From: Candidatus Hydrogenedens sp. | GTDB taxonomy: Bacteria; Hydrogenedentota; Hydrogenedentia; Hydrogenedentales; Hydrogenedentaceae | Assembly (NCBI GenBank): GCA_049968235.1 | Contig: JBMFRC010000001.1 | Span: forward strand, 352,001-416,000 | DNA length: 64,000 nt | Reading direction: 5' to 3' | Shown: positions 2,524-43,523 of the stretch, in pieces | Layout of the letters: every line of letters starts with the position of its first letter | Position numbering within the stretch: position 1 is the first letter of the stretch | Made by a program: the position numbers and the translations under genes | Notes under the pieces: generated by a model | Databases searched by the model: none | What the model saw: only the letters and a program-made list of their open reading frames with translations | Told to the model about the DNA's origin: nothing

Positions 2524-2535
2524 TTTTCCCTCAAA

Positions 2536-3621: not shown

Positions 3622-3757
3622 ATTCCAATAATTAAGTTATCCGTTTTTTTATTAGACTGTATTTGCTGTAAAATAGATTTATAATATTTACATTTATTTA
3701 TTGAATATCGTTCCAATACTCTTAGTTTCATTATATTAAATTCACGAGGATAAAACA

Positions 3758-3979
3758 ATGAAGTATTTTAAAATCGCACAATTTGTTCCCGGAAAGGGCG
3801 ATGCCTGGACTTATTACGAATGTGATGATAAAGAAACGATACAACGACAATTAACATATATTCCCGAAACAGGTGAAATTTCAAAAGTACCTGACCCTAT
3901 TGTCAAAAGGCTATATCGTCCGGAATTATTAGAACCTTCAACCTCAGAAGAATTTATATCCCTCTGGGGGAAAGAATAA
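3758..3979 (+). CDS. Small hypothetical protein (73 aa)
   Basis: ATG preceded by AGGAT. 31 nt upstream of the PHP-domain gene on the same strand. Confidence 0.35.
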   Translation: MKYFKIAQFVPGKGDAWTYYECDDKETIQRQLTYIPETGEISKVPDPIVKRLYRPELLEPSTSEEFISLWGKE

Positions 3980-4010
3980 CTTATTAAAGATATGATACGG
4001 AGTATATGAA

Positions 4011-4877: not shown

Positions 4878-5066
4878 AGATGAAAAAATAAAGTATACTC
4901 AACATAAAGAAGGAATATATACAAAAATACAAACAAGATTGTTTCTATGAAATATCACAAATTTTTTTTTTCGACATCCAAAAGTTGTTTATTATATGAT
5001 TAAAAACCCGGTATATTAAAATCTGAAATAAAAATGACAAAAAAACATCTATGAAGGAGTTGTATC

Positions 5067-10013: not shown

Positions 10014-12356
10014 TTATTGGGGAATAAGTGAAGAAAAGTCAACATTTGCTGATATATCTGGCTGGCGACGGATATTTAAAGGAAGCATTATAAAAACATA
10101 ATCCCCTTCTATCCTATGTTTTATTCCTTTTTGTAAATACATATCTACCCCGCCATCATCTTTTCTATCCATGCCTATGCTATATATTTTAAATGCAAAG
10201 TCATCTCCTTTTATATATGTAATTGGTTCGCCATTTTTCCATGGGTCCTCAGGAATTTTAGAAATATAATCGGGAACAAGTTCTTTTAGATTATCAGGAA
10301 GCCGATTATTTTTCAAACGAAATCGTTCAATGGCTATAGCGGTTTGAACAAGATTTATAAGAACATAGTGCCGTAATTCGGAATCAAAACAGCGGTCCAA
10401 TGACGGGTATATTATGTTGAGGTTTATATAAAGCCAGTGTGGGGGAATAGATGTGAAGAGTGAATTTATTTCTCTCTTTTTCAGAAGATGAGTCTTATAG
10501 TCATCGAACGAACATTTTTCTTGTATGCAAATGTTTTCTTTTTGTGCTACATTGGTAGCCGTTTTTCTTAGTGCGGTATATAGATTCATTGCCACCATTC
10601 TTTCTATATCTGTAAGATAAAAAACATCAAAGATAGGAACCCATGATTTAATTATATTTCTCAATTGATAATATTGAAGGTACTTATATTTTTGTATCCA
10701 GGAACTATATTCAATTAAGAATCCTTCTCTTTGAACCATAGGTAAAACAGACAGAAACATCAGTAATTCTGTATGTAAACTCAAATTAAATAAGGACCTT
10801 TCTTCAGGAGGTACCGAAAAATTCTGAACAATATTACTTAATTCTAAAAGTACTTCTTCGGATAGTTCTTGATGATTAATAATCCATTCTAAATTATCAT
10901 AGAATTTCCTAAACATGGCAATATATACAAGTTGTGAAATATATACAGGTTCATCTTTTAGAGATTTAGAAACAGAGGCACAGGTTCGCAATGCCCGCAA
11001 CATATTTCCATAATCACCATCTATGGCACTTAAAATAGCCTCCAACCCTAATTTCCTCTCAAAATCTCGCAATTCGGAAAGATGTCCCAATTCCACAGAA
11101 TAACCCTTAGTTAAATCAATTGAATAGTACCCTTTTGTTAGACCACTTTCAGCAGTTTCATGGAGTTTTTGGGTTAATTTTTTATATACCTTCTCGTAAA
11201 CTTCTTTATATAACCAGTAGAGATTTTCCGATAGGGGCTTATCATATCTTATTATATCGCCATAAAAACGGTTCAATATTATCTTTAGATATTCTTTTTC
11301 TTCCTGTGTTTTAAATTTTTCATCAATCTCCTTTTGATACAATTTTTCAAAATCCATTTCCTTCAAAATGACATCTCGACAAAGAGGAAATAAATCGTAA
11401 TATTTCCGGGCAATGTTCTCCTTTTGCGGAACGGAACTATATTTTTCATTCATTTCTTTTAAGGTTGCAGGGAGAGAATTTCCTCTAAAATAAGCAATAC
11501 ATTTTTCAATAGTTCCTGTTTGTAAATGGGAAATAAGCGTTAAGATTGCAAAACAAAGGGGCAGTAAATATCCAACACATAAGAATGAAACCCGTTCCTC
11601 TATATACGGAGAATTCCCAGAATTTTCCAATAAATCTTTCTCTGGTGTTTTCCAATAATAACCATGTGCAAATAACAGAAGATTGAGCCATGTTATAGCA
11701 AAGATTGCAGATAAGAACAGATATGTACCTCCAAGTATGGATGTATTAAGAATACCCAAATATTGCCATGGCACTATGCAGACAAAAATACTAAGGAAAA
11801 TAATTAGCAGGAAAATCCTTTCTTTTTTCCCTAACAAACGGGCTCGGATTGTAATGAATAAATAAACAAAAAACATGATAAGATAGTAAAAATAAACTGC
11901 ATGAAAAACGATATAGATAAGGGAAAGAGAAAATTTCCTACATGAAGGGAAAATAATAAATAACAAATTCTTAACAAAAGAAATAAGCCACGAAACCCCT
12001 TGCCCTATTCCAAAAAGATGATATAGGGTCATAAACCATTCTTTATTTGAGTATATATAAAAGGAGGACAATGAATAAAAAGATATAAGCAGACACAGGA
12101 CAAGAAACGAAAAGATAAGAATACTTGATGGGTTAAACATGATTAACCAGACAATTATCCCATAAGTAATGACAATCCCGGTAATAAATATCATAAGGGG
12201 CATTAAGAAAGAATTTATATCAGGGAAAGGAATCTGCAAACTTGCCAGAGCGGGGTCTGGTACAATATGCATCTTAAACTTCCAATAAAAATAGATAAAC
12301 TCTATATCCAGATAACAGGCAATGTTATGAAAAGATTTATGTTCCCTGCTAACCAA
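10014..12356 (-). CDS. Large membrane protein: N-terminal polytopic domain, central soluble domain, C-terminal GspG-type pseudopilin-like motif
   Basis: 780 aa. The first ~270 aa carry 8 or more hydrophobic helices. The C-terminus reads LPDNLKELVPDYISKIPEDPWKNGEPITYIKGDDFAFKIYSIGMDRKDDGG. This matches the T2SS major pseudopilin C-terminal consensus (LPxDL...DPWGxxY...FDLxSLGADGxxGG). Confidence 0.55.
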   Translation of the reverse strand: MVSREHKSFHNIACYLDIEFIYFYWKFKMHIVPDPALASLQIPFPDINSFLMPLMIFITGIVITYGIIVWLIMFNPSSILIFSFLVLCLLISFYSLSSFYIYSNKEWFMTLYHLFGIGQGVSWLISFVKNLLFIIFPSCRKFSLSLIYIVFHAVYFYYLIMFFVYLFITIRARLLGKKERIFLLIIFLSIFVCIVPWQYLGILNTSILGGTYLFLSAIFAITWLNLLLFAHGYYWKTPEKDLLENSGNSPYIEERVSFLCVGYLLPLCFAILTLISHLQTGTIEKCIAYFRGNSLPATLKEMNEKYSSVPQKENIARKYYDLFPLCRDVILKEMDFEKLYQKEIDEKFKTQEEKEYLKIILNRFYGDIIRYDKPLSENLYWLYKEVYEKVYKKLTQKLHETAESGLTKGYYSIDLTKGYSVELGHLSELRDFERKLGLEAILSAIDGDYGNMLRALRTCASVSKSLKDEPVYISQLVYIAMFRKFYDNLEWIINHQELSEEVLLELSNIVQNFSVPPEERSLFNLSLHTELLMFLSVLPMVQREGFLIEYSSWIQKYKYLQYYQLRNIIKSWVPIFDVFYLTDIERMVAMNLYTALRKTATNVAQKENICIQEKCSFDDYKTHLLKKREINSLFTSIPPHWLYINLNIIYPSLDRCFDSELRHYVLINLVQTAIAIERFRLKNNRLPDNLKELVPDYISKIPEDPWKNGEPITYIKGDDFAFKIYSIGMDRKDDGGVDMYLQKGIKHRIEGDYVFIMLPLNIRRQPDISANVDFSSLIPQ

Positions 12357-21990: not shown

Positions 21991-23295
21991 CTATTGATTT
22001 TGTTGATGATATTTTTCTTTTCGTGCAGAGTTAAAAAGTTCTTTCATTTTGTAGTGAACATAGGGCTGTTTTGCCGCATCCTCTTTTCCTTTCGCGTGAG
22101 CGACCCATAATTCTAAATCTGTGGGACAATAGAGAACGCTGTGCAAGTTAACATTGACCATTGCCACTGCTTTGAGGATCTCTAATGCGATATTCTGGTC
22201 AATCTTGCCGTAATTCTCTTTTATTCGTGTAGCCATTCCTTTATAACGATGGTCATAGGAATTTGAACCATAGGGCATATTTGGTGCATTGGCACAGGTC
22301 TGTAAAGAGCGAATGGTTGGATCCATTGCTTCATCGGCACGCATAACGGCATTCTCAATGGGAATTGCATATTCGACAGTCTCGCGCGGGTCATTATCTG
22401 TAAATATTGCTACATGATGGGCACACGTTTCATAAACCAGGGCTCGGTTTTCATCTCCATCCGCAATCACATAGTTATAACCCACGGTATGCCGTGCTTC
22501 GAGAACAATTTCTGTTACCTGGTCCAAAGTAGATGCTTCTTCCAATATCTTGCGTAGAAGAAATTCAAGTGGGATACCATCAATGCGTCGGTCTTTATTC
22601 GTTGCTCCAATCTGTGCAATGGATACTTTGCGGTTATTCATGCCGGAGAGAACACCAATTGCACATGCATAACCGACAGAAATAAATGAATTCAATCCTT
22701 GTGGTTCATAACAGAAGGTAACCGCTGTATCCTGAATTCCTGCTTCCATAATCCAATCAAAATTTCTACCATGATACATCTTCCCATCAACAGTAGCTTT
22801 ACCCCACACGGCAAACGAACTACAACCCCGTTCTGTTATAACGGAAACAACATGAATACGACGCAAATCCTGAAGATTTACACCGGCACCATCAGCAATC
22901 CCCTCCAGTTCACGAGAATACCGTAATGGAATATGTGGCGAACATAATCTCCATGTAACATCCAATATCAACTTTGCTGCAAACTTTGGTAACCCTACTT
23001 CTTGCTTCGCCAGTTCTAATAATTCGTCAAATCGTGCAAGACTACGGTGAATAACATCTTTCAAGAGAACACCTCGTTGAAAACCCATCTCATACGGGGT
23101 CCCTTTCAAGTGAATAACCTTCGTCCCTTCAATTTCCTCCAAGAAAGCTTTTTGTATATCTACTGCTTCATGGGGACCGCGCGTAGGATAGAGCCAGAAG
23201 TAGAATCCAGCACCTAAAACCAGCACAACAAAAAGAATGGGAAGTATAAAACGAATTTTCTTTTTCATGGGAAATTCTCCAATAACAATTTTCAA
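21991..23295 (-). CDS. Peptidase C45 family Ntn-hydrolase (acyl-CoA:6-aminopenicillanic-acid acyltransferase-like), membrane anchored
   Basis: N-terminal TM/signal (the real start is probably MKKKIRF at 23268). GTPYEMGFQRG and the self-processing/nucleophile site ERG-CSSFAVWG are typical of C45. Confidence 0.6.
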   Translation of the reverse strand: MKIVIGEFPMKKKIRFILPILFVVLVLGAGFYFWLYPTRGPHEAVDIQKAFLEEIEGTKVIHLKGTPYEMGFQRGVLLKDVIHRSLARFDELLELAKQEVGLPKFAAKLILDVTWRLCSPHIPLRYSRELEGIADGAGVNLQDLRRIHVVSVITERGCSSFAVWGKATVDGKMYHGRNFDWIMEAGIQDTAVTFCYEPQGLNSFISVGYACAIGVLSGMNNRKVSIAQIGATNKDRRIDGIPLEFLLRKILEEASTLDQVTEIVLEARHTVGYNYVIADGDENRALVYETCAHHVAIFTDNDPRETVEYAIPIENAVMRADEAMDPTIRSLQTCANAPNMPYGSNSYDHRYKGMATRIKENYGKIDQNIALEILKAVAMVNVNLHSVLYCPTDLELWVAHAKGKEDAAKQPYVHYKMKELFNSARKEKYHQQNQ

Positions 23296-23421: not shown

Positions 23422-26400
23422 TTATACATCCTTAATGATAGAAATAGGGATTGTTAGATTGTTAGCAATATCGGGAATATCATTTCTATATGTAAAAAGG
23501 ATTATCTGTTGTCCTTCTCCCAATGCTTTCAATGTTTCCAGAGATTGAATCAATTGGGGATAGTCATAAGACACAAAAGGGTCATCTAACAATAACGGAA
23601 TTGGTTCTTTGAGAAAATGAGGAATTTTCATAAGGGCGACACGCATAGCAAGATATGCCTGTTCCTGAACAGAGGGATTTGAAGATAATTCTTCCAGAGG
23701 TATGGGGTTCTCTGTTTGTGCAGGAATAACTTTCAATGTCAGGTCCTGCTCTACAAGCACACCTGTATATTTGTACTTCGTTAAATGTATCAGCAAACGA
23801 CTGACTTCATTTTGTAAAGGCAATGCAATTTTATGATACCGATATGTGGATAATTGCTGTAATACCGATATTGCTGATAATACACTCTCCTGTTCGTATC
23901 GAAGTATTCTCCATTGAGTTTCATAATAATATTTTTCTTCAGCAATTTCATTTAACGGTCGCAATTTGTTTGTCAATGTTTCCAACTCTGATTGTAGAAT
24001 CTGTATATCCTTTTGTATTTGTTCTACTTCGTTTTCTGTTTGCTCAATAAGTAGTTGCAATTGTTCTTCATCTTCGGCGGGGACTGATGGGACAAAATCT
24101 TGTGTTTGTTTTTCCAGTTCCTCTATTGTGCCATCATTCAGCAATTGTTGAAGTTGCAGTTCGGTTTGTTTAATTCGTGAAAAGATAGCCTGTGCTTCTT
24201 CGGCAAGGGCATATTTGTTTTTCCATTCGGAGATACTGCTTACTCCTGCCAGTTCTAATATCTCCTGAATCTGTTTCTGGTTTTGAGATAGTTCCTCATC
24301 CACTTTTTGCAGTTGTTGATTTAAATCCAATCGCTTTTTCCGAAGCTCGGATACCTTTGTTTTTAGCCCACAGTACATTTCTTCTGCACGATAATATGAA
24401 CGGAAAGTATCCTGTGTTAAAGTTTCCCCTGGTTGAAGCAGTCCGGATTGAACTAAGTCATGTTCTATCCGGCTAAGTATCTCTTTTTGAATTTTATTGT
24501 AAATATCCTTTGTATATTCTTCTTTTTTCGTTATAGTGTATGTTAATTGTTGATATTGGTTCCGGAGGTCCCAGAGCCTGCGGTGGTACATTCTTGCTTT
24601 TTCCTGCAATTCAAATACCTTTCGCCGATTTTGCTCTATTTTATCCTTATCTTCCAGAGATAGACCTGCTTGTTCAAAAAGATTTTGTATCTCTTGATAA
24701 AGGTCGTAGGTTCGGGTCTGGTTAATCGTAAATAGTTCCTCTGCTTTACGAACCTGTGTAGATAAATCTCCCTCGTTTTTTAACCAGGCACAGTATTCGT
24801 CATAAAGCCCCTGCAATTCGCGCACATGCTGTAAATTGGCTTTATTAAGTAGTGCTGTTATTGGATGCTTATCAATATATTCGAAGGTAACTATTTTCTG
24901 AATTTTTTCTTTCAATTGCTTCAGGAAAACATCGATTTCTTTCAGAGTTCGCTTATTATTGATATAAGAACTCACAAAATATAAAAAAGCCAATCCTACT
25001 GCACTGGCAAACCATAGAGATTCCTTTTTATGCATTGTTATAAACAGATAAATGAGTAAAATATCCAGCAAAAAACAAAGCGTCCCTAATACCAGGTCCA
25101 CAGGTTGTCGGGAACGAATTTGTAGTTTTAATACCTCTGCTTCTTCCAATTGTCTTTCTAATTCTTGCTGTTCTTCTTCCGGTTTATCTTTATATTTCAA
25201 ATAATCATCTACAAGCCCTGCAAAGTCATTTATATCATCAAATAATTCCCGATACGGTTGCGTTTGTTGTTGAACACGGGTATATTCTTTTCTCAGTTCA
25301 TTAAGTTGCGATTCGCTTTTATGTGTTTCCTTCAAAGAACTTTTATACATATCAATGGCAAAATCGGTTTTGGAGTAGAACATATCATCTTTTTGTATTA
25401 CCTCTGGAAGTTCCGAAACAATTTTTTCAACTTCCTGAATATGTTCGTTTACCTTCTCTCGTTGATTGTGTAGTTCTTTCAACACCTCCTCATTACTGTG
25501 AATATGTTTCAAATATTCCTCATATTTATCTTGATAATCCTTAATATAATCAATAGGGATAAAGGTAGAATGACGCAGTTCTAACTCAAGTTCATTGATT
25601 TCCCCAGAGATGTTCTCAATCTCATTTTGCAATTTCTGCTTTTGCATTTCCGCATGATTGATAGCCATCTCCGTTTGAATAACATATACATTCTGGTCAA
25701 CTGGAAAATTTCTAAAATTGGAGTATGAAAAGGAACGTCTAGTCAGTTCATTTAACTTGTCTCGTAAGGCTTTTGCATCGTTCTTTTTTCTCCAGAGCGT
25801 ATATTGACGGGCATATTGTAATTTATCTTGCAGTTCCTTATATTTCTGTTGAAGACTACTCAGTTTCTCCTTATGTTGTTTCAGAAATAATTTCTTCTCG
25901 CATATTCTTTCAAAACTTTCCTTTACCTGCTCATATTCCTCTGATAACCTTTCTATTTGTTCCGATATCAGGTTATAGGGGCGTTTATAGGTACGTTCTG
26001 TTCCGATGGATTGCAAATATTCCTGAAAATCGGTAATTATGGTATTTACAGATTGTTCCGTTGTCCCTGTATCTATCAAACACTGAAGATGTTCCTTTAC
26101 TCTGTTCCCGTGGGTAAAGGAATTCAAACTGTCTATTGTCTTCTGTGAAATTACAGACACTCCGGAGAACATTTCACGAGTCAAATCCAGATGTTCATTT
26201 ATAAAAGCAGGTTCTCCATTTGGATATACAGGAACTGTATCTGTTATATCATTTGCATCCATCCCTTCATATATTCTTAATGATGGTTCAGGTCCAAATA
26301 CTCGATGAAGATGTATCAGTTTCCCCGTATTCAGGCGATAAACAATATTTCCCCGATAATCCGAAGTATACCATGGTGTATATTTATAATAATTTTCAGA

Positions 26401-26580
26401 AAAGGATGCATTTTTCTTTTTGGAAGTTTTTTGCCCAAATAACATATCCAGCATAAACTGGAATAATGTATTTTTCCCATTCTCATCTCTGACAAAAATT
26501 ATCTGGAACCCCTTCTCAAATTCAAGGGGAATCTTTTGTAGTTTCCCGAAACCATAGATATGTCCCTTTATAAATTCCAT
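23422..26580 (-). CDS. SbcC/Rad50-like SMC-type coiled-coil protein of the SbcE/YhaN type, with an internal TM hairpin and degenerate ATPase motifs
   Basis: 1052 aa. N-terminus IYGFGKL...IIFVRDENGKNTLFQFMLDMLFG sits at the P-loop position. Long heptad-rich coiled-coil arms. A hydrophobic hairpin (LVLGTLCFLLDILLIYLFI / LWFASAVGLAFLYFV) lies mid-protein. C-terminal LSSNP (signature position), LLLDDPF (Walker B) and ILFTY (H-loop position). Confidence 0.65.
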   Translation of the reverse strand: MEFIKGHIYGFGKLQKIPLEFEKGFQIIFVRDENGKNTLFQFMLDMLFGQKTSKKKNASFSENYYKYTPWYTSDYRGNIVYRLNTGKLIHLHRVFGPEPSLRIYEGMDANDITDTVPVYPNGEPAFINEHLDLTREMFSGVSVISQKTIDSLNSFTHGNRVKEHLQCLIDTGTTEQSVNTIITDFQEYLQSIGTERTYKRPYNLISEQIERLSEEYEQVKESFERICEKKLFLKQHKEKLSSLQQKYKELQDKLQYARQYTLWRKKNDAKALRDKLNELTRRSFSYSNFRNFPVDQNVYVIQTEMAINHAEMQKQKLQNEIENISGEINELELELRHSTFIPIDYIKDYQDKYEEYLKHIHSNEEVLKELHNQREKVNEHIQEVEKIVSELPEVIQKDDMFYSKTDFAIDMYKSSLKETHKSESQLNELRKEYTRVQQQTQPYRELFDDINDFAGLVDDYLKYKDKPEEEQQELERQLEEAEVLKLQIRSRQPVDLVLGTLCFLLDILLIYLFITMHKKESLWFASAVGLAFLYFVSSYINNKRTLKEIDVFLKQLKEKIQKIVTFEYIDKHPITALLNKANLQHVRELQGLYDEYCAWLKNEGDLSTQVRKAEELFTINQTRTYDLYQEIQNLFEQAGLSLEDKDKIEQNRRKVFELQEKARMYHRRLWDLRNQYQQLTYTITKKEEYTKDIYNKIQKEILSRIEHDLVQSGLLQPGETLTQDTFRSYYRAEEMYCGLKTKVSELRKKRLDLNQQLQKVDEELSQNQKQIQEILELAGVSSISEWKNKYALAEEAQAIFSRIKQTELQLQQLLNDGTIEELEKQTQDFVPSVPAEDEEQLQLLIEQTENEVEQIQKDIQILQSELETLTNKLRPLNEIAEEKYYYETQWRILRYEQESVLSAISVLQQLSTYRYHKIALPLQNEVSRLLIHLTKYKYTGVLVEQDLTLKVIPAQTENPIPLEELSSNPSVQEQAYLAMRVALMKIPHFLKEPIPLLLDDPFVSYDYPQLIQSLETLKALGEGQQIILFTYRNDIPDIANNLTIPISIIKDV

Positions 26581-27740
26581 TCCGGGGGAACCTCACATGT
26601 TTCAACGGTAGGAATTTTTAGATTTGCTCCTCCAGCAATTCTTGCGGTTAAATGTCGGACTCGTTTTGCAATACTGACAGCGGAGGTATTCGGTGCACAT
26701 TTTTGTTGTTCCGTTACCTGCTTAAAAAATTCAGATAGAACGGTAATCTCTCGCAAATCTTCTGCATTTTCAAATCCTTCTATTTCTCCATCAAAACTCC
26801 ATGTAATAAATAGATTTTCTTCCTGAATAGATATCATTGTTTCCGGGATGCCATTTAGAAGGGAAGGAGAAATTGTTCCACTGAAACGGAGATGAACAAC
26901 ACAGGGTTTTTGCAAATTTGTCAATTCATTTCGTAACTTCGTGTGAAGTCCATCTTCATTTGTAAACAAAGACATATCTATATTGATAAGAGCATAAAAA
27001 TTTTTCTGTAAAGACATATGTTCTACATGGGAAACTTTCCATTGATTATCATCCGATTGAAAGCGAATACCTAAAACCCCAAAAGGAGGAGTATCATCCA
27101 TACTTATAGGGTCGGGAATACCACAACAACACGCCGTCAATTGCGAAGTATTGTAAAATTGTTTGAAACTGTGTCCTTTCCCTACCCCGATATATGAGAT
27201 AACATCCGGGACCTTCTCAAACCATCTTGACAATTCCCTTTTATCGTTAAACATAGGCAATTCATAAGATAGAAGAATATGATTCCTGCCATCATAGCCA
27301 GTCGGTAAATTAAGTTCCGCAAAATCCCCTACCTTCCTATTATCTCCTGCTATTGCATAAACAACAATCGGGGTCTTATTCCCTTCCCACCTGTTTGTTG
27401 TTTCGGAATTCATTACTATTACATTTTCGGGAAAAGTCTCTAATATGTAGGGAGAATATTTTGTGATAGGGTCTGATTCGCCGGGAATAATAATGACTGG
27501 AACAGGTTTAATTGCTTCACATCGCTCAAACAGGAATTGAAGGGTTTGTTCCGTTACATATTCTGCATCCAGCAAATTACCGGTTATGAATAAGGCATCT
27601 GCTTTATACTCAAATACTTTACTGACAATTGCATCGAGTAATTCCCTCTGTCTTCTTCTTCGTTCTTGACCATAGTGTAGGTTTAAGGAGGAAAAAAAGG
27701 GCTTGTCTAAGTATACATTTGCGGTATGTAAGATGAACAT
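26568..27740 (-). CDS. SbcD/Mre11-like calcineurin-fold phosphoesterase homolog (SbcF/YhaO-like) with substituted metal ligands
   Basis: MFILHTANVYLD aligns position-for-position to SbcD MRILHTSDWHLG. ADALFITGNLLD aligns to the GDxxD motif. IIIPGESD aligns to GNHD. Overlaps the SbcE-like gene by 13 nt. Confidence 0.6.
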   Translation of the reverse strand: MFILHTANVYLDKPFFSSLNLHYGQERRRRQRELLDAIVSKVFEYKADALFITGNLLDAEYVTEQTLQFLFERCEAIKPVPVIIIPGESDPITKYSPYILETFPENVIVMNSETTNRWEGNKTPIVVYAIAGDNRKVGDFAELNLPTGYDGRNHILLSYELPMFNDKRELSRWFEKVPDVISYIGVGKGHSFKQFYNTSQLTACCCGIPDPISMDDTPPFGVLGIRFQSDDNQWKVSHVEHMSLQKNFYALINIDMSLFTNEDGLHTKLRNELTNLQKPCVVHLRFSGTISPSLLNGIPETMISIQEENLFITWSFDGEIEGFENAEDLREITVLSEFFKQVTEQQKCAPNTSAVSIAKRVRHLTARIAGGANLKIPTVETCEVPPEWNL

Positions 27741-27765: not shown

Positions 27766-28716
27766 TTAAGAATATATTATATCAATTTGCGGTTCCTGCT
27801 TTGCTATGGCATCAGTAAAACCCCTATATCGCCAATATCGGAATACTCGGCGATACATTCGGAGAAGTAATTTAGAATCTTCTGGAAGTTTTAAGCAAAA
27901 ACGGTGGTAGTAAGGAATAAGCAGGGCATTGATAATTCGTGTAGTATAAGGAAAATAAAGTTTATAATTAACGACGATATGATAGTCATTAGGAAACAAT
28001 CGCAGGTAACAGCCCATTGAATAACCCCGACGGTAATGATATCTGCACATATCCAGATATGAACTTCCTTTCCAAAGCCAACAAAGAGCCTGATTGTCAA
28101 TATGAAGTTTACAACCTACTTGCGAGAGCCTTTTTACCAATTCCACTTCTGCGAATTCCGGGAAATAAAATGATTTGTTAAATGTTCCACTTTGAAGAAT
28201 AAGGTCACGAGGGATACTCATGTTATAGAGAGAGAAATGGGAAGGAGTTATTTGTGTAATTTCCTCCATTGAAGGTGGTTCATCCTCTGGCAAGAACCAG
28301 GGTGTTATGCTTTTTGAAGAGAGTCGCGGATGCAAAAGTAACGCGCCTCCGATACAGGCTTTCCCCTCATATGCGTATTGGAGCTGGACATGCCTTTGGA
28401 TCCAACTATTACTGGGCAATACCTCCGGTTGACTGCACAATACCCACTTTCCTTTCGCCTCGTGCAATGCTAAGTCCCATGCTTGTATCATTGACTCTCC
28501 CCCATGTGGAATATAACGAACAATCAACGGAGACCCTTTTGACAAAGAAGCAACTGTCTTTCGCGTTTCTTCTGAGGAATTCGTTTCAACAATAATCCAC
28601 TCAAATTGTGCTAAAGGATAATCCTGATGTTCCAGATGAAAAAACCATGGGGATAAACACCACGACAAATTATTTCCTACTAACAGCACGCTTGCATGGA
28701 TTTCATTCGTTGACAT
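27766..28716 (-). CDS. GT-A fold (GT2-like) glycosyltransferase homolog lacking DXD and other acidic motifs
   Basis: ASVLLVGNN..FEWIIVETNSSEE..VRYIPHGGESMIQAWDLALHEAKGKWVLCSQPEVLP follows the GT2 N-terminal pattern (IIPTYN..EIIVVDDGSTD..xRYIxxxNxGxxxARNxGxxxAxGEYIxFLDxDD). The DD and DXD positions are ET and SQPE. 25 nt upstream of the SbcF-like gene. Confidence 0.4.
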   Translation of the reverse strand: MSTNEIHASVLLVGNNLSWCLSPWFFHLEHQDYPLAQFEWIIVETNSSEETRKTVASLSKGSPLIVRYIPHGGESMIQAWDLALHEAKGKWVLCSQPEVLPSNSWIQRHVQLQYAYEGKACIGGALLLHPRLSSKSITPWFLPEDEPPSMEEITQITPSHFSLYNMSIPRDLILQSGTFNKSFYFPEFAEVELVKRLSQVGCKLHIDNQALCWLWKGSSYLDMCRYHYRRGYSMGCYLRLFPNDYHIVVNYKLYFPYTTRIINALLIPYYHRFCLKLPEDSKLLLRMYRRVFRYWRYRGFTDAIAKQEPQIDIIYS

Positions 28717-28825: not shown

Positions 28826-31108
28826 ATGTCGCAAATAGCAAGTAAGGTTTCGGAGTTCCGACGCTTCCCTTTTTGGGGAACATTACTCGGGGGTATTTTC
28901 CTGTTACTTTTGATACGTATTTATTGGGACCCTATGCTGGCAGCCAGTTTAGGTAAAAGCGATAAAGAAGATATATGGGCAAACAAACAATATTCCGTTT
29001 GGGGTCCTATATGGAAATATGGGTTTGACCGTATCGGGAAGGGAGAAATTCCGCACTGGAATCCGTATCAACTTTGTGGACAACCCTACCTTGTGGACAT
29101 ACGTACATCTTTGTTTCAACCCTTGCATATACTATTTTGGCGAATGGACTTTGCACATGCCTATCAATGGTATATTTTCCTTTCCATGTCCCTTTTAGGT
29201 ATCGGTTTTTTAATATGGGGTAGAATTTTAGAGATTCCTTATCCTGCTTTAATACCCGGACTTGTATCTGTGGTATTTTCGGGACCTGGAATATGTGTTC
29301 AAATGTCGTTACCTTTGTTAAGTGGTTCTGTGTGGCTAATTTTTCTACTAAGTGGTATGGTATATTTCTTTGAAAACCATACACCACGCAGTTTTCTCAT
29401 CTTATTGTTTATATGGACCGCATTGATACTATCTGGAAGTATTGAATGCATATTTGCAGGTCTCCTTATGCTCATCCTTTTCCCTTTTATCTTTCGCAGT
29501 TTCCCGACACTTTCCATAGAAAGGAAATCTTTATCGGTAATTTTCAAAATTATAGTTGTTTTGATACTGGGAATAATGGTAAGTGCATTTGCATGGTTTC
29601 CTTTTATATCATGGCAGATATATACAGATGTACACTGGAGCCAATTTCTTAGTTTTCCTTTATCGGCTCATTTTCCCGAAACATTCTCTCTCGCTTTTTC
29701 TCAAATCTTTCTCCCTATATGGGCATGGGACCTTCCAAAATTACCCGTTTTATATCCCGGATTAATATGTTTCGTATTTATTTTTCCCGCATTTTTTGAC
29801 CGTGAACTTCGTTCTATCGTATGGTTTCATGGGCTAATCTTGTTATTTTTCTTCCTTCTATTTTTTATAAACCTTAACCTGGCACGAATACTTCAACAGG
29901 GAATGTTAATTCTTGTTGCAATTTCTTTCTCAACATTGGCAGGGATAGGCTTTCACCGATTGCTATTAAAAGGTCGGGATTTAAGTTCTCCATATGTATG
30001 GGTTTCGGGTATCTTTGTTTTTTTATTGCTATTAGCCCTCATTTTAATCGCTAATCCATGGATAAAGGGTGTATCCATTTTATTACTCTTTCTCCTTATC
30101 CCTGCAACAATCATCCGTATACCCAAAATAAATTCTATCCTTTGCATCTTAATCGCTCTGTTAAGTTTCATCGAATTGTATTATTTACTTCGTCCTTTTC
30201 TACCTGAAAGTTATATCCCCGTTATTGAAAAAAAAGATGTTTATTCCGAATTCGTCAGACAGCTCCGCTATCAAACAGGCACAGGAAGAGGTCTGATTGT
30301 CCCGGAATCGAACTCAATACTCTGGTCGGAAAACCTCGGGATGTATTATCACTGGCAATTGGTGAATGGAACAGAACTACCCACAGATAAATATGCACAA
30401 TTATGGATGAAATCCCTTTCAAATCAAACACAGGAAAAAACAGAACTATTAACAAATCCGTTAACAACAATCAGTGGTGTTCAGTGGGCATTTACTACAA
30501 ATATGTCAATAGATAACGATAAGGGGAAAAATTTAAAAACCTGGCGAAAAATGGAGCAAATCTACTTTGTTGATATTTATGAAAATACCCAACCTATACC
30601 GCGATGTTTCTGGGTACCCCACTACCGAAAAGTCTCTTCTATGGAAGAGGTCTTAAATATTTTGACACATAGTAACTTCTCTCCATTTAAAGAATGCGTG
30701 ATACAGTCAGATGTTCCGATTTCCTACGACAAAAAAACTGCTGATATACTTCCCTTAACACCGGAACAGGATGCAGATTCTTCCGCAAAGGTAGTAACTA
30801 CCAATATCCAGGAGGAAAACTCTGAATATATCTCTATACAGATAAAAGCACCTAAGGAAGGTTTCTTAGTGCTTTTAGACACATACAACCCGGGCTGGAA
30901 AGCATTTGTCGATGGAGAACTTACTGAAATTTTTAGAACAAACGGTATATTTAGAGGTGTTCCCATACCGGGAGGGGTACATCAGGTTGTATTCAAATAT
31001 ACAAGCCCTGGCTGGGACGCAGGGAGAATAATTACATTCGTGGCTATTCTTTTAACTCTATCAACACTACTCATCGAAAAAGTTTTCAATAAAAGCCAAA
31101 CCGCATAA
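28826..31108 (+). CDS. YfhO-family polytopic membrane protein (GT-C-type glycosyltransferase-like)
   Basis: 760 aa with many TM helices. The N-terminal loop IPHWNPYQLCGQPYLVDIRTSLFQP resembles the YfhO hallmark (IPLWNPY..G.P..AN.Q.A.FYP). C-terminal soluble domain. Confidence 0.6.
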   Translation: MSQIASKVSEFRRFPFWGTLLGGIFLLLLIRIYWDPMLAASLGKSDKEDIWANKQYSVWGPIWKYGFDRIGKGEIPHWNPYQLCGQPYLVDIRTSLFQPLHILFWRMDFAHAYQWYIFLSMSLLGIGFLIWGRILEIPYPALIPGLVSVVFSGPGICVQMSLPLLSGSVWLIFLLSGMVYFFENHTPRSFLILLFIWTALILSGSIECIFAGLLMLILFPFIFRSFPTLSIERKSLSVIFKIIVVLILGIMVSAFAWFPFISWQIYTDVHWSQFLSFPLSAHFPETFSLAFSQIFLPIWAWDLPKLPVLYPGLICFVFIFPAFFDRELRSIVWFHGLILLFFFLLFFINLNLARILQQGMLILVAISFSTLAGIGFHRLLLKGRDLSSPYVWVSGIFVFLLLLALILIANPWIKGVSILLLFLLIPATIIRIPKINSILCILIALLSFIELYYLLRPFLPESYIPVIEKKDVYSEFVRQLRYQTGTGRGLIVPESNSILWSENLGMYYHWQLVNGTELPTDKYAQLWMKSLSNQTQEKTELLTNPLTTISGVQWAFTTNMSIDNDKGKNLKTWRKMEQIYFVDIYENTQPIPRCFWVPHYRKVSSMEEVLNILTHSNFSPFKECVIQSDVPISYDKKTADILPLTPEQDADSSAKVVTTNIQEENSEYISIQIKAPKEGFLVLLDTYNPGWKAFVDGELTEIFRTNGIFRGVPIPGGVHQVVFKYTSPGWDAGRIITFVAILLTLSTLLIEKVFNKSQTA

Positions 31109-37537: not shown

Positions 37538-39763
37538 TTAGAAACCCGGGTCGGGATTACTTTTTTCTTCGGGTGGCAGAAGTGGTGCGACTTCAGTCTC
37601 GGAGGGGGGGACGGGTTCTGTTGTAGTAGATGATGAGGGCTGGTTACTGTCAATCGGTTCCAGAAGTGTTTCTTCTGGAACGGTCTCTTCTGTCCGTCTG
37701 GAAACTGGATAATAAATAGGCGGGGCTGTCCCTTCGATATATGCCTCTGTGTAGGAACCACCGAGTGTACCTGTAATACGATTAATTTTGTAGAACTGCA
37801 CACCGGAAGGAACTGTAAAATCGCGTACAGGCAGGTCTTTTTCAGCGAACATCATGAAGTCAACCCAAATTGGGCATGCGAGCCTTCCTCCGGTATAATT
37901 TACTCCTCTACCTAAACTGCGATTGTCCTTATAACCGACCCATACAACAGTGGTAAAATCTGTGGTAAATCCACAAAACCAGGCATCACGGCTGTCATTG
38001 GTTGTTCCGGTTTTACCTCCTACAGGCCTTTTCAAGGCACTGGCACGATGCCCCGTCGGGTAATAGCCCAACGAAGAGTCGGGGGTGCATACTCCCTTCA
38101 ACATGTGCATGGTAACATACGCAACCTTCGGGTCAACAACCTGTTCTTTTTGTTGATACAGGCGATAATCATAAAGAAGCAACCCTTCCGCATCGCGAAT
38201 TTCTTTTATAAACACAGGGTAGAATTTTATTCCATTGTGAGCAAAGACGGAATAAGCAACAGTATGGCTGAGTGCAGTTACTTCTACTGTGCCAAGACCT
38301 AATGTTAAACCTACAGAGTTGCTAACTACGGTGTTCATTTCACATCGTTCAAAAAAGGTACGAACGAAAGGCAATCCCAACATATCCACCAGACGAATAG
38401 AAACAATATTTATGGATTTTTCGATAGCCTGTCGCAGGGGTATCGGACCACGAAAAGAACCATCAAAATTTTGAGGAGCCCAAACGCGTCCATTGGGCAT
38501 AACACGAACAAATGGGGAATCGTCAATAAGTGTTGATGGCGTCATTCCTGAGGCTATAGCGGACATCCATATAAAGGGTTTTACACTGGACCCGGGCTGT
38601 CGTTTCGCCTGTGTTGCAGTGTTATATTTTTCCTCTTCCCAATTTCTTCCACCCACAAGTGTGCGGACAAAGCCTTCATATCCCGGACGATTATCAATGC
38701 AAACCAATGCACCGGAAACAGGTATAAAATTCTTTGTTTCAAGACGCGGTTTATCAAATTTTGTCAAATGCTCTTCTAAAGTAGTTTCTGCTACTTTTTG
38801 CAAAGAATAATCGAGTGTTGTATATACACTTAGTCCCCCTTCAAACACTTCGCTTACAGAATATTTGGAAAGCAAGATTTTTCGGACCTCTTCGACAAAA
38901 TATGGCGCTTTTATACGATAAGGTTCGTAAATATCAATTCCTTCCTTTTTCAGTTGCTCTCTTTTTTCAGGTGTCATTACCCGTGAGGATAAATCTTCTG
39001 ATAAAGCCTTCTGATATTCCTCCTCAGTAATAAATCCCTCTTCACGCATTTGCTCCAATACAATGTTTCTGCGTTCAATTGCATTCTTTAAATGGTTAAT
39101 GGGTTCATTAACATTAGGAGCCCGAGTTAATCCGGCAAGAGTTGCTCCTTCACTCAGCGTTAAATTCTGCACACTTTTCCCAAAATATTGCCTTGAAGCA
39201 GACTCCACACCATAAGCATTAATCCCTAAAAAAACCTGATTCAGGTAAAGTTCTAATATTTCATCCTTTGTAAATTCCCGTTCCACCTGTAAAGCGACAA
39301 TAGCCTCTCGTATCTTCCTTTTTATAGACCGTTCTTGTCCAATACCTAATGTTTCTACATTCCGAACAACTTGCTGTGTAATGGTGCTACCTCCACGAAA
39401 ACGTCCTGTACGTAATCCATATAAAAAAGCGTTTATAATGGCATCCGGTCGGACACCTTTATGCGAATAGAATAAAGCATCTTCTGTAGCAATAAATGCT
39501 TTTTGCACATGAAGGGGTATCTGACTGAGAGGAACTAATTGTCTGTCTTCAATCGTAAATGTATACAGGAGTTCCCCTGTATCTGCATATATCTTCGTCC
39601 CCGTTTTCGGACGGAAAGTCTCTAAAGAAGAAATGACATTTTGAGCATCCTCCAATATCCACACAAATACCCCGAGAGCAGAGCCCCATAAGGCTCCGAC
39701 TACCAGCATGAAACTAAAAAATAGCCATGCACAACCGCGTCGGGGTGTAACTGTATACTCCAT
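37538..39763 (-). CDS. mrcA: Class A penicillin-binding protein (bifunctional transglycosylase/transpeptidase, PBP1A-type)
   Basis: Glycosyltransferase motifs EDxxFxxHxG (EDALFYSHKG), GGSTITQQ and RKxxE. Transpeptidase motifs SSVKP, SxN and KTG(T). N-terminal TM anchor. Low-complexity P/E/T-rich C-terminal tail. Confidence 0.85.
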   Translation of the reverse strand: MEYTVTPRRGCAWLFFSFMLVVGALWGSALGVFVWILEDAQNVISSLETFRPKTGTKIYADTGELLYTFTIEDRQLVPLSQIPLHVQKAFIATEDALFYSHKGVRPDAIINAFLYGLRTGRFRGGSTITQQVVRNVETLGIGQERSIKRKIREAIVALQVEREFTKDEILELYLNQVFLGINAYGVESASRQYFGKSVQNLTLSEGATLAGLTRAPNVNEPINHLKNAIERRNIVLEQMREEGFITEEEYQKALSEDLSSRVMTPEKREQLKKEGIDIYEPYRIKAPYFVEEVRKILLSKYSVSEVFEGGLSVYTTLDYSLQKVAETTLEEHLTKFDKPRLETKNFIPVSGALVCIDNRPGYEGFVRTLVGGRNWEEEKYNTATQAKRQPGSSVKPFIWMSAIASGMTPSTLIDDSPFVRVMPNGRVWAPQNFDGSFRGPIPLRQAIEKSINIVSIRLVDMLGLPFVRTFFERCEMNTVVSNSVGLTLGLGTVEVTALSHTVAYSVFAHNGIKFYPVFIKEIRDAEGLLLYDYRLYQQKEQVVDPKVAYVTMHMLKGVCTPDSSLGYYPTGHRASALKRPVGGKTGTTNDSRDAWFCGFTTDFTTVVWVGYKDNRSLGRGVNYTGGRLACPIWVDFMMFAEKDLPVRDFTVPSGVQFYKINRITGTLGGSYTEAYIEGTAPPIYYPVSRRTEETVPEETLLEPIDSNQPSSSTTTEPVPPSETEVAPLLPPEEKSNPDPGF

Positions 39764-40170: not shown

Positions 40171-41760
40171 TTAGTTCCCTTTTGTTTCAATAGAAATGTG
40201 CCCTTCTACAGACATATCGGGATTATTGGGGGAAGGGGAATGAAATCCGGAGGAAAAATTACTTCCTTGCTGAATGGAAGCATTTTGCATGTCTACAGGT
40301 ATAGAATCATATCCTGCTGTCTTTCCTTTTATTACAAAAGAAGGGGGTAATCTTTCTGGTAAAATTGTTATTACAGCCGGATAGCCTCCATCAATTGGTG
40401 CACGAACAACAGGTGCTTCACGAACTGTTAAATATCCCGTCTCATCCATAAAAAAAGTAAGCGTGGTATCTCTGCCCTCAGAAAGCAAATCTGCAAGAAG
40501 GAGATATACATCGGGTACGAAATATTGTCGAATTTTCAGTAAATCCCCTGCTATTTGAATTACTTTTTCTGTGTTGAGGACCCAGAGATATGCAGATAAA
40601 GGCAATAGTTCATTCGGATTATTAAAATAAACTTCCGGAGGAATCATAGGTCGGGTATAGTTATAACTTCGGGTTTTAGCACTCATAAGCAGGGTATTTC
40701 GTCGGAATAACAATTCGGGACGAAGGCGAAACTGAACATATTGTATGGCTCGTATTACCTGCATTACTGCCTGCATGGAAAATTCAGGTGCTATTTGTGT
40801 CCCATATTTCACGGGAAACTCCATCGGATTACTCCTAACTTCCATCGGTAAAAATGGCAAGTCTGTAACAATTCCATATTGTAATGGAACAAATAATTGA
40901 GTAGCAGAGATACCCACCCTCTCCGGAATAATAATCATTCTTATATTATGTAATTTAGGTGGAAAACAGGAGAAGATGCTTCGCAAACTATGATAATGAG
41001 ACTCCGACAAAACCCCACCATCAAAGACTAAGATATAAAATTCATTGAAGAAACTTTTCATAGGTTCGGGTAGTTGCACATCATTGATAAACTTATTTGA
41101 CGGTAGATAGGTTGATAGAACCATGCATAGGTATATAAGGGATTCATATATATGTGCTAAAACATGGGGAGAGGGCATCTCTCCTGTGGACAAAAATTGC
41201 TGAACGGAAACATTCCATATTTGTTCCAGATGAACCGGTGTCTTTTTTAATTCTGAATCTATCATTTCTGTTAATTGAATAATCTGTGCATCTTTTAAGT
41301 TATCTATTCCCTTTAATAAAAATTGAGAAGATAAGGAAATTGATGGGAGGTCTGGAACTTGCTTTTGAACTTCTCTAAGCAGAGCTTGGGTAGCAAATAC
41401 CGACGCATACATCAGTAAATCACCCTGAAATTCAGGTGTCTGGCGAATCATTGCATCCCATACCTGCAAATGAGCAAGTGAAAATGTATGTGCTTCAAAA
41501 TATGCGGAAATTTGTTTTCTCCACATTTCTAATGTAAATTCTTTTGCAATTAATTTTTCCTTCAATGTTTGCCAGAATACTTCCCACTCGGCAGTATTCG
41601 GTTCAGGCGGTGAAAAAGTCTCTGATGTAGATATGTTTGATTGTGACAAAGGCAATGAGTTTCCAGAATTATCATCAGTAAACACTTGCTCTGCAAACAA
41701 GAACAATATACAAAAAGAAATTAAAAAACTATCGAGGTAGAAAATTTTTTTTCTTAACAT
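40171..41760 (-). CDS. Secreted hypothetical protein (529 aa)
   Basis: Signal peptide. No recognisable catalytic motif. Tightly packed between the VanZ-like gene and the upstream membrane protein. Confidence 0.45.
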   Translation of the reverse strand: MLRKKIFYLDSFLISFCILFLFAEQVFTDDNSGNSLPLSQSNISTSETFSPPEPNTAEWEVFWQTLKEKLIAKEFTLEMWRKQISAYFEAHTFSLAHLQVWDAMIRQTPEFQGDLLMYASVFATQALLREVQKQVPDLPSISLSSQFLLKGIDNLKDAQIIQLTEMIDSELKKTPVHLEQIWNVSVQQFLSTGEMPSPHVLAHIYESLIYLCMVLSTYLPSNKFINDVQLPEPMKSFFNEFYILVFDGGVLSESHYHSLRSIFSCFPPKLHNIRMIIIPERVGISATQLFVPLQYGIVTDLPFLPMEVRSNPMEFPVKYGTQIAPEFSMQAVMQVIRAIQYVQFRLRPELLFRRNTLLMSAKTRSYNYTRPMIPPEVYFNNPNELLPLSAYLWVLNTEKVIQIAGDLLKIRQYFVPDVYLLLADLLSEGRDTTLTFFMDETGYLTVREAPVVRAPIDGGYPAVITILPERLPPSFVIKGKTAGYDSIPVDMQNASIQQGSNFSSGFHSPSPNNPDMSVEGHISIETKGN

Positions 41761-41798: not shown

Positions 41799-43523
41799 TT
41801 ATTGAGATTCAGGGACAGCAAATAATTTTGTGCTACCTTTATTAAAAATTAGTGGAAATTTATCAGGCAATTGAATACTCTTATGAAAAGTTTCCTGCTC
41901 ATACGGTCCATCTATAATATATCTCACTTTATATTTTTTTAATATTTCTTCCATAGTATATGAATCTCCACAGGTATAAAAACGGAATACATCCTCCGTT
42001 TTTTGGACATAATCTTTCGTAAGCATGAAATGCCCTGTAACTGTCCGGCAGGGAGTAAATGCAAAAATAAACTGGGATGTTTTAGGTGATGCTATAACCA
42101 CATCATTCTCTTTTCCATTCCTTTTTAAATACTCCAATGCGGAATTTTCATCTATGGATAAGAAATAAGCCCATTGGGGATGCCCATATTTCAAATCGTA
42201 AAACATGGAGTAATATACAAAAACAGTGGTAGGGACGGACAACAGAATTATCAGGATAGTAAGTAAGAACTGTCGTGCAAATAGAAAAGAAAAAATACGA
42301 ATTACCTTATTTTCAGTGATGGTATGTTGTGTAATGTAATTATTTATCCATTCGTAGGGACCTATCATAGTTAATATAGGTGGAACAAGGATGAAGGCAT
42401 ATAATCCCGATTCCTGACCTGCTTTCCAATAGGGATAAAGATTACAAATCCCCCATGCTACCATTATCCAAACAAAGATTATTAAAAAACGAACCTGTTC
42501 CTGACACTTTTTTACAAGATATACAAAAAATATCATGCAAACCAACCATGTCCAGCCGATACCCAAAACATATTCAATTAAAAACCCGGGCTTGCCCATA
42601 AATTGATAATTTGCAGACCAACCTGACATACCTAACGCATCAGAAAGGGATATCCAGAGATAATACAGAATCGCAGGAGCATGGATTCCAGCAGGGATAG
42701 CACATAAATAGAACCATTTCCTCTCAAACTTCCTTTGTATAGAACAAAATAAAATCGGGATTAGTGTAAACATAATATAGGATTCAGGTATCAGGTAAGG
42801 ACGCATCAATGAGTGGAGTAAAGCCATTATGCCACACAGAACGAAATATATCGTTTTTCCTGTCTGAAAACCGCGTATAAGGAATGCGTACATCAGAACA
42901 GATAGTGTTATGGAACGAATAAAATGAGGCTTACAAACAAGATAACTAAATATCTGAATCCCTTCCATATCCCATGAAAGAGGTAAGGATAAATGAAGGT
43001 ATTGGTTCAACAATTCCACGAACCAACCAAAGCCTGAACCCAAAGTAATGAGAAGTAATACAAATCTTCTCTGATAAATGCTCTCGAAAAATATAGCGAG
43101 AAAATAATATAAAGAAAATAGAAATAAAAATACAGATAGGCATCTATCGATATGAAAAAAGTTAATCACAGAGATATGGAGAAGCCGTGCGGTCCTTCCT
43201 AATAACCACCATTCTACATTGAAATACGAATCTGGGGGAGAATATGGCGTGCATTGATTGGTAAACCACCATTTCCCTTCCCACGCCTGACGCTGGAACA
43301 TGATATATCCCAACGAACCCGCAGTGCCTCTGCCCACTATGCCCATGAAAACACCTTTCTCTCCTTCAAGGTATTTCCCATATAAATATGGGAAGGTGCC
43401 TATAATGCAAACAACAATACCGAATAGGAGGGGGAACCAAAACTCTCGTCTTGCAATTGGAGGACAGTAAGTAAAATTTTTTATTGGTTGAGTGGTATCC
43501 GTAAAAGAGTCCCCCTTTCCCAT
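41799..43523 (-). CDS. Large polytopic membrane protein (possible GT-C-like lipid/glycan transferase), start coupled to the sulfatase-family gene stop
   Basis: 574 aa with 12 or more TM helices and short loops. Overlaps the upstream sulfatase-domain gene at 43523. The architecture resembles the membrane half of EptA/LtaS/ArnT-like enzymes. Confidence 0.45.
   Translation of the reverse strand: MGKGDSFTDTTQPIKNFTYCPPIARREFWFPLLFGIVVCIIGTFPYLYGKYLEGEKGVFMGIVGRGTAGSLGYIMFQRQAWEGKWWFTNQCTPYSPPDSYFNVEWWLLGRTARLLHISVINFFHIDRCLSVFLFLFSLYYFLAIFFESIYQRRFVLLLITLGSGFGWFVELLNQYLHLSLPLSWDMEGIQIFSYLVCKPHFIRSITLSVLMYAFLIRGFQTGKTIYFVLCGIMALLHSLMRPYLIPESYIMFTLIPILFCSIQRKFERKWFYLCAIPAGIHAPAILYYLWISLSDALGMSGWSANYQFMGKPGFLIEYVLGIGWTWLVCMIFFVYLVKKCQEQVRFLIIFVWIMVAWGICNLYPYWKAGQESGLYAFILVPPILTMIGPYEWINNYITQHTITENKVIRIFSFLFARQFLLTILIILLSVPTTVFVYYSMFYDLKYGHPQWAYFLSIDENSALEYLKRNGKENDVVIASPKTSQFIFAFTPCRTVTGHFMLTKDYVQKTEDVFRFYTCGDSYTMEEILKKYKVRYIIDGPYEQETFHKSIQLPDKFPLIFNKGSTKLFAVPESQ

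Follow-up and report, generated by a model that had tools for sequence, protein, structure and literature searches.

Degenerate ATPase and nuclease sites in a selectively maintained YhaN/SbcE-type Rad50-like protein and its Mre11-fold partner from Candidatus Hydrogenedens

Machines of the Mre11-Rad50 type are usually understood as ATP-driven nucleases. The closest described relative of the system discussed here is the SbcE/SbcF pair (YhaN/YhaO) of Bacillus subtilis, in which SbcE has a split Rad50/SbcC-like head, two heptad arms of about 300 amino acids (aa) each, and a hydrophobic central domain instead of the CxxC hook, while the gene immediately upstream is SbcD-like (Krishnamurthy et al. 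2009, PMC2811018). SbcE has a role in double-strand-break repair or competence. Its central domain, which is unique to the protein and has a first half that is hydrophobic and insoluble, is not termed a membrane anchor in the 2009 study. Our literature search found no account of catalytically dead Mre11/Rad50-type pairs and no treatment of the YhaN/SbcE family beyond the 2009 study. Here we examine a window of 64,000 nucleotides (nt) of ordinary Candidatus Hydrogenedens chromosomal DNA (assembly GCA_049968235.1, contig JBMFRC010000001.1, positions 352,001 to 416,000; all coordinates below are those of the window). An uninterrupted open reading frame (ORF) of 1052 aa (23422..26580, minus strand), which we call the big gene, encodes a Rad50-like protein of the YhaN/SbcE type with a degenerate ATP site. 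Its start is overlapped by a gene for a 390-aa partner with the Mre11/SbcD/YhaO fold (26568..27740, minus strand); this upstream gene, also catalytically degenerate, had been overlooked in the original prediction made from the sequence alone.

The B. subtilis pair could be compared by its description. Unlike it, the pair in the window has lost the Walker A motif, the signature and the Cys of the H-loop column from the large protein, and seven of eight ligand or catalytic residues from the partner; the host belongs to Hydrogenedentota, not to Firmicutes, and is known from metagenome assemblies only, and no yhaM-like neighbour was noted. With Mre11-Rad50/SbcCD, the pair shares the head fold, the nuclease and capping fold of the partner, and the adjacent, translationally coupled genes; in contrast to them, it has a hydrophobic hairpin at the apex in place of the zinc hook, and neither ATP-binding motifs nor a nuclease metal site.

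The family assignment relies on descent. The original prediction had seen an SbcE/YhaN-like protein at 23488-26493, a range that falls within the single unbroken frame, and the strings that it quoted are found at their places, with nt 26467-26493 encoding VRDENGKNT (aa 30-38) and nt 23488-23688 encoding aa 965-1031, from LSSNP via LLLDDPF to ILFTY. The big protein itself scores 17.9 bits against Pfam AAA_27 (PF13514), below the 22-bit cut-off, and the full-length orthologs P0011-P0013 exceed that threshold (34-53 bits). Full-length homologs are graded in this respect: at 80-57% identity they are without Pfam ATPase domains, and at 55-21% they have AAA_27, AAA_23 or SMC_N. P0011 and P0009 (49-55% identity, with intact GLNESGKT and LSQGT) are encoded in the order YfhO / GT2 / partner / big gene, the same as in the window, and are therefore orthologs rather than paralogs. 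A phmmer search of 1.84 billion representatives with aa 1-200 retrieved 2087 sequences at E <= 1e-3 and 310 at E <= 1e-10, and some family representatives carry the JGI name 'uncharacterized protein YhaN'. With syntenic orthologs that pass AAA_27 and relatives that bear this name, the big protein is a member of the YhaN/SbcE family by descent, and not a functional ATPase member of it. One family representative, P0160 (1549 aa), is unusual in that its YhaN-type N-terminal head is followed by a long C-terminal extension in which Asp/Gly/Cys repeats abound (DGDGLGDDCDVCP...).

The fold of the big protein is that of a Rad50-type ABC head, as indicated both by profile alignment and by structure comparison. 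The family profile aligns to Pyrococcus Rad50 (PfRad50) with E = 6e-20, so that the motif columns could be fixed independently. The AlphaFold2 (AF2) model has a predicted local distance difference test score (pLDDT) of 81.7 and, in Foldseek, matches Smc5/6, Chaetomium Rad50, MukB, JetC, archaeal Rad50 heads, SbcC and LmuB; the matches to Rad50 structures and their relatives include 7zr1, 3qku and 7yzp. The N-terminal half of the head (aa 1-195; 25996..26580, minus strand) is a β-rich Rad50-type lobe in the model, and the C-terminal half (aa 934-1052; 23425..23781, minus strand) aligns to the C-terminal lobe of Rad50. At the former P-loop the model has a strand (25-30), a loop and a helix (33-48), with pLDDT of 85-93.

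All four ATPase motifs had been described as non-canonical; by comparison with the family to which the protein belongs, three of them, Walker A, the signature and the H-loop column, have indeed been lost, and the fourth, Walker B, is a family trait. The degenerate Walker A, VRDENGKN (aa 30-37; 26470..26493, minus strand), aligns without gaps to the G[LP]NE[SQ]GKT of orthologs, with the changes G30V, N32D and T37N; it is thus non-canonical, as proposed, but not one residue short. The signature, LS[QK]GTxxQ in the family, is replaced by SNPSVQEQ (aa 967-974; 23659..23682, minus strand) in the column alignment. Its loss had been recognized, but in a register that is off by two: it is S967-N968-P969-S970-V971 that aligns to the family L-S-x-G-T and to Rad50 LSGGE, so that both the Ser and the Gly are gone and the motif is in worse condition than the earlier register implied. 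Y1031 (23488..23490, minus strand) does occupy the H-loop His column of Rad50 in the profile alignment to PfRad50, as had been said; the norm of the family in this column is, however, Cys (103 of 115 sequences) and not His, and it is the change from Cys to Tyr that is specific to the degenerate clade described below. In two proteins from Clostridia, P0018 and P0069, the H-column Cys is the sole Cys of the protein.

The case of Walker B is different. The motif with the beginning of the D-loop, PLLLDDPF (aa 995-1002; 23575..23598, minus strand), has Asp where the catalytic Glu was expected, and this had been taken for another loss, yet LLLDDPF is common to every motif-intact Hydrogenedentota ortholog. 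Among 108 family representatives the pair is DD in 84 and DE in 24 (the family-wide counts, here and for the H column, cover representatives P0133-P0279 among the best 150), and long LmuB proteins combine an hhhhDD Walker B consensus with a prototypical Walker A (PMC12663957). Because DD is the majority state of the family and occurs in LmuB beside an ordinary Walker A, it is not evidence of loss; in three members of the degenerate clade Walker B is relaxed, to ED, ND and DN. The DD pair and the Cys at the H column, both of them family-wide, suggest an unusual chemistry of the ATP site in YhaN-type proteins as a whole. Q146 (26143..26145, minus strand), in the column of the Rad50 Q-loop Gln (visQk against YIRQG in the PfRad50 profile alignment), is retained. 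This column has Gln in seven of eight members of the clade with dead ATP sites and in Clostridia, and A, T, P, I or H in motif-intact Hydrogenedentota orthologs.

The original prediction had named beforehand, as the observation that would count against it, a canonical motif elsewhere in the head; a scan for Walker A and the signature found neither anywhere in the big protein or in eight other members of the clade, and by the standards of YhaN and of Rad50/SbcC alike the big protein is without functional ATP-binding motifs.

The degenerate proteins (window, P0001-P0006, P0008 and those of loci L006-L008) form one clade in 200 of 200 bootstraps, nested among intact orthologs and marked by the loss of Walker A, the signature and the H-column Cys. 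Among the 150 best family representatives, which were retrieved with the degenerate head as query, GK[ST] is lost in none, and three have lost only the first Gly. In 12 intact orthologs (to about 22% identity) the motif columns show 0.56 bits of variability against 1.71 bits for the other columns of the head, and none of 10,000 random column sets is as low. Within the degenerate clade (57% identity or more) the relation is reversed, and variability in the motif columns exceeds that of the remaining head (0.95 versus 0.66 bits; 206 of 10,000 random sets as high), with Walker A reading FRDDNEKN, VKEEQDRN or VRDKNEKD in different members. Per 100 aa, the heads have 3.1-3.4 fixed clade-specific switches, the arms 0.7-1.0 and the hairpin none; apart from those in the motifs, the switches include R1009Q, just past the D-loop, at a position that is Arg in all 13 intact sequences. 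At L009:6001-9168 (Candidatus Hydrogenedens sp. AMR_MDS_2428), the signature reads LRQGT, with Ser changed to Arg, next to an intact Walker A (GLNESGKT); the locus may represent an intermediate, or its ATP site may have been partially hit in a separate event.

Could such a protein still be a working ATPase with a non-canonical P-loop, in which Lys36, the Asp pair of Walker B, the D-loop and the Q-loop Gln suffice for a slow switch cycle? The window protein keeps GK (VRDENGKN) as well as D999/D1000, D1006 and Q146, its heads are still strongly constrained, and related SMC-like proteins can function with the DD form of Walker B. Set against this, the very residues that such a cycle would need vary within the clade (K36R, G35E/D, N37D, D999E/N, D1000N); N32, invariant in intact members, has become Asp or Glu, which would bring extra negative charge to the phosphate site; and the Ser and Gly of the signature are gone, in motif columns that vary more than the remainder of the head. 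We regard residual activity of this kind as unlikely, and the ATP-driven engagement of the heads and hydrolysis are, judging by the motifs, most likely gone.

The partner gene joins the big gene in a junction (26568..26594, minus strand) where the 3' end of the former overlaps the latter by 13 nt, with a Shine-Dalgarno-like GAGG at 26591-26594, 10 nt 5' of the ATG of the big gene (26580). The 13-nt overlap recurs in L005-L010, and in L001 the overlap is 4 nt; together with the GAGG it points to translational coupling of the two genes. An SbcD-like gene lies directly upstream in the window and in 33 of 35 related loci, the other two holding only a C-terminal fragment of the gene.

Sequence models by themselves barely recognize the partner: its Metallophos and SbcD matches are sub-threshold, and its 12 homologs in the database are all recorded without a Pfam domain. 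The AF2 model (pLDDT 70, with a good core and poorly modelled C-terminal 70 aa), compared with PDB structures in Foldseek, has Mre11 or SbcD as all of its top 35 matches, with E down to 5e-11 and template modelling scores of 0.5-0.66, and the fold spans both the nuclease and the capping domains of these proteins. The partner profile aligns to Mre11 with E = 9e-9, placing GNLLD, PGESDP and GKGH on motifs II, III and V. At the eight metal-ligand and catalytic positions, canonically D H D N H H H H, the partner in the window has N Y N E S Y K H, i.e., one canonical residue out of eight.

The distribution of these residues tells the order of events. All eight are present, as D H D N H H H H, in the partners of 24 loci from Clostridia, Acidobacteriota and most Hydrogenedentota, and every partner of the Hydrogenedens lineage and of L011 has between none and two. 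Since L001 and L009-L011 have a dead partner beside an intact ATP site, the loss of the nuclease site came first and that of the ATP site followed. The Hydrogenedentota metagenome-assembled genome (MAG) Dive100_bin1.12 (L015) provides another case: its partner (approximately 1084-2250 of that locus) reads D R N P R P H T, with two canonical residues of eight, next to a big gene (approximately 2247-5420) with an intact ATPase (GPNERGKST, LSQGTVDQ). As L015 branches beside lineages whose partners have all eight residues, its loss is independent, and Hydrogenedentota have thus lost the nuclease site on two or more occasions. A further locus, L031:1-180, derives from the MAG of L015 and shows full identity with the C-terminus of the L015 gene; it was rejected as a second copy, being an assembly overlap at a contig end.

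Another explanation takes the big protein for the inert half of a heteromer, a regulatory or structural subunit that pairs with an intact YhaN-, SbcC- or Rad50-like paralog from another place in the genome. ABC/SMC dimers that are asymmetric, with one of their sites degenerate, are familiar. In dimers of the ABC/SMC type, each ATP is bound between two heads, one of which contributes Walker A and the other the signature, and the loss of both motifs in one chain would, by this architecture, disable both composite sites whatever the dimer partner. Furthermore, when GTDB species representatives were scanned with a pattern, each Hydrogenedens assembly yielded a single locus, and the dedicated partner gene is itself inactive. 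A heteromer of this kind is, in our estimate, quite improbable.

Despite their dead sites, both genes are under purifying selection. Between the window and L006, of all pairs within the degenerate clade the least saturated one (80% aa identity, synonymous divergence dS of 0.80), the ratio of nonsynonymous to synonymous divergence (dN/dS) is 0.134 overall (95% bootstrap interval 0.108-0.164); the head halves have 0.136 (0.086-0.206), the arms 0.121 and the partner 0.148 (0.100-0.212). For L009-L010, a pair with intact motifs and equal divergence, the values are 0.119 overall, 0.101 for the heads, 0.126 for the arms and 0.126 for the partner. Measured as divergence from the nearest outgroup, degenerate members of the genus exceed intact ones 1.26-fold in the heads (1.13-fold when motif columns are left out) and 1.00-1.01-fold in the arms and hairpin. 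This is a modest acceleration specific to the heads, followed by continued constraint, a course that practically excludes a pseudogene.

The idea that the two genes are decaying remnants, recent pseudogenes with no function retained, would account for the loss of both catalytic centres, the head acceleration ratio of 1.26 and the sub-threshold Pfam scores. It does not account for complete genes that are all 1049-1053 aa long, with intact ORFs in at least eight lineages down to 57% identity, nor for dN/dS values of 0.13-0.15, whose upper 95% bounds of 0.16-0.21 leave them indistinguishable from those of motif-intact orthologs. The conserved overlap that would couple translation and the confident AF2 folds tell against it as well, and we consider decay very improbable.

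Between the two halves of the head, the big protein is a long coiled coil with a hydrophobic apex. Arm 1 (aa 202-493; 25102..25977, minus strand) and arm 2 (aa 541-933; 23782..24960, minus strand) are formed by long helices in the AF2 model, with heptad power z of 9.8 and 5.1, respectively; the 3.5-residue hydrophobic periodicity is far over chance in both (0 of 500 shuffles each) and is not seen in the heads. The coiled coil of the original prediction is therefore real, although the helical arms comprise about 690 aa and not the ~900 aa that it gave. In the model, helix breaks of arm 2 pair with those of arm 1 about an apex at residues 516-519. There lies a two-helix hydrophobic hairpin (aa 494-540; 24961..25101, minus strand), in which the first putative transmembrane helix (about 494-516) and the second (about 521-540) are connected by the loop HKKE; the hairpin predicted earlier at about nt 24965-25110 (aa 491-539) coincides with it exactly. 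Its helices are the only segments whose 19-residue Kyte-Doolittle mean exceeds 1.6 (maximum 2.65, against at most 0.84 elsewhere). The hairpin is centred at 0.49 of the length of the big protein, with the AF2 helix reversing at 516-519, and a comparable hairpin is found at 0.48-0.51 of the length in orthologs of 624-1059 aa from Hydrogenedentota, Acidobacteriota and Clostridia. A CxxC zinc hook is absent from the entire big protein and from 23 relatives (24 members scanned). As to the membrane-anchored layout attributed to Bacillus SbcE/YhaN, the arms and the hairpin in the middle of the protein are indeed kept, but no established membrane anchor is set out for the Bacillus protein in PMC2811018.

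We suggest that the two overlapping genes represent a complex of the YhaO/YhaN (SbcF/SbcE) type turned into a pair of pseudoenzymes. By analogy with Mre11-Rad50, a dimer of the Mre11-fold partner would hold two Rad50-like heads, each of which would cap an antiparallel coiled coil with about 290 residues per arm, some 40 nm long. At the apex, the hairpin would take the place of the zinc hook and fix the rod to the inner membrane, leaving the heads in the cytoplasm; as there is no signal peptide and the loop is only four residues long, a cytoplasmic location is expected for both large halves. The partner parted with its metal ligands first, so that nuclease chemistry is not expected, and later, in one sub-clade of Candidatus Hydrogenedens, the big protein lost Walker A, the signature and the H-column Cys. 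That selection has kept both genes with dead sites points to a non-enzymatic, probably scaffolding role. We therefore hold it to be rather probable, from what the sequences tell, that a complex constitutively free of nucleotide, and without nuclease activity, has been retained as a membrane-anchored coiled-coil scaffold or tether; the ATP-independent tether of the original prediction seems, on the same grounds, reasonable. Vps29 of the retromer, where the calcineurin-like phosphoesterase fold is reused as a non-catalytic scaffold, is a weak structural match to the partner model (Foldseek ranks 38-39); it comes from an unrelated lineage and context, and serves as an analogy for the pseudoenzyme principle only.

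Several considerations weigh against this picture. Lys36 is held in seven of eight clade members, the D-loop Asp in all and the Walker B Asp in most; with these and the Q-loop Gln retained, some non-canonical binding of nucleotide or phosphate could occur in individual members. The hairpin is predicted to insert in the membrane from its hydrophobicity alone, and formation of the complex is suggested by the gene overlap and by yeast two-hybrid results on the homologous Bacillus proteins, to which PMC2811018 refers. All sequences compared are from metagenome assemblies; dS is near saturation except in the closest pairs, and the selection estimates come mainly from the window with L006 and from L009 with L010. 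Finally, the YhaN/SbcE and YhaO/SbcF family is an offshoot of Rad50/Mre11 in which the function of even the intact members is poorly known.

The neighbours of the pair are as follows. A co-oriented glycosyltransferase family 2 (GT2)-like gene (27766..28716, minus strand) is separated from the partner by 25 nt on its upstream side and is probably in the same operon; its Pfam match is marginal (25.7 versus 23.3 bits) and spans aa 34-115 only. Divergent from these three genes is one for a YfhO-like membrane protein (28826-31108, plus strand). The arrangement of GT2 with a divergent YfhO is kept in L001 and L005-L010 and is not found in more distant Hydrogenedentota loci, which makes it a feature of a genus-level clade only. 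Directly downstream of the big gene is a C45-family autoproteolytic acyltransferase/hydrolase (21991-23295, minus strand; NCBIfam 8.6e-51), which none of the other loci with an examined gene table or ORF list showed in the corresponding place. The window is rich in envelope genes, including PBP1a (37538-39763), an M23 peptidase, a SurA-like peptidyl-prolyl isomerase (PPIase) and a sulfatase (43523-45064). Adjoining the sulfatase is an ORF of 574 aa (41799-43523, minus strand) with a marginal match to Dpy19, a C-mannosyltransferase of the GT-C type (27.4 versus 27.2 bits). Two more ORFs, 10014-12356 (minus strand, 780 aa) and 40171-41760 (minus strand, 529 aa), match no Pfam family at E <= 1e-5; the former has a faint stretch resembling protein G of the type II secretion system near its C-terminus, and nothing else.

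That the pair serves in defence against phages, as a module akin to Lamassu (LmuB) or Wadjet (JetC), is very improbable: LmuB, which is derived from SbcC, does share with the big protein a Rad50/SbcC-type head, a coiled coil and PADLOC profile similarity (E = 1.2e-13, beside weak JetC matches and Foldseek matches to both structures), but the PADLOC matches span the coiled coil and the C-terminal head, as those of any Rad50/SbcC relative would, the partner has no PADLOC match, the neighbours are GT2, YfhO, the C45 hydrolase and a PPIase, with no LmuA/LmuC or JetA/B/D among them, the pair is syntenic across the genus and vertically inherited across the phylum among housekeeping and envelope genes, and LmuB works with LmuA/LmuC effectors and keeps a Walker A that is missing here and that Lamassu requires, mutants in it being impaired in defence (PMC12663957).

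For the non-catalytic scaffold or tether that we favour, the default guess for a ligand is DNA, from ancestry, and the genus-specific operon link to GT2 and YfhO is only a lead to a ligand. A broader and considerably more tentative proposal, one that we would call possible but doubtful, takes the stepwise loss of the two sites to mean that what selection at its core maintains in the membrane-anchored YhaO/YhaN-type complexes of this phylum is an architectural function, that of a rod of about 40 nm reaching from the inner membrane to a target in the cytoplasm, either the nucleoid or an envelope-biogenesis assembly encoded by the co-oriented GT2/YfhO neighbours, and that the clade of the window would be the first described case of a wholly non-catalytic Mre11-Rad50-type complex.

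Automated annotation misses the pair, as most clade members are without a Pfam domain, or else labels it 'AAA family ATPase', probably a misnomer in this clade. Taken together, the loci make up a natural separation-of-function series of intact pairs, pairs with a dead nuclease and an intact ATPase, which arose twice, and pairs in which both are dead, all of them under purifying selection. If the scaffolding role holds, part of the work of these complexes needs neither ATPase nor nuclease activity, and the series offers natural 'mutants' with which to find out what the YhaN/SbcE family does.

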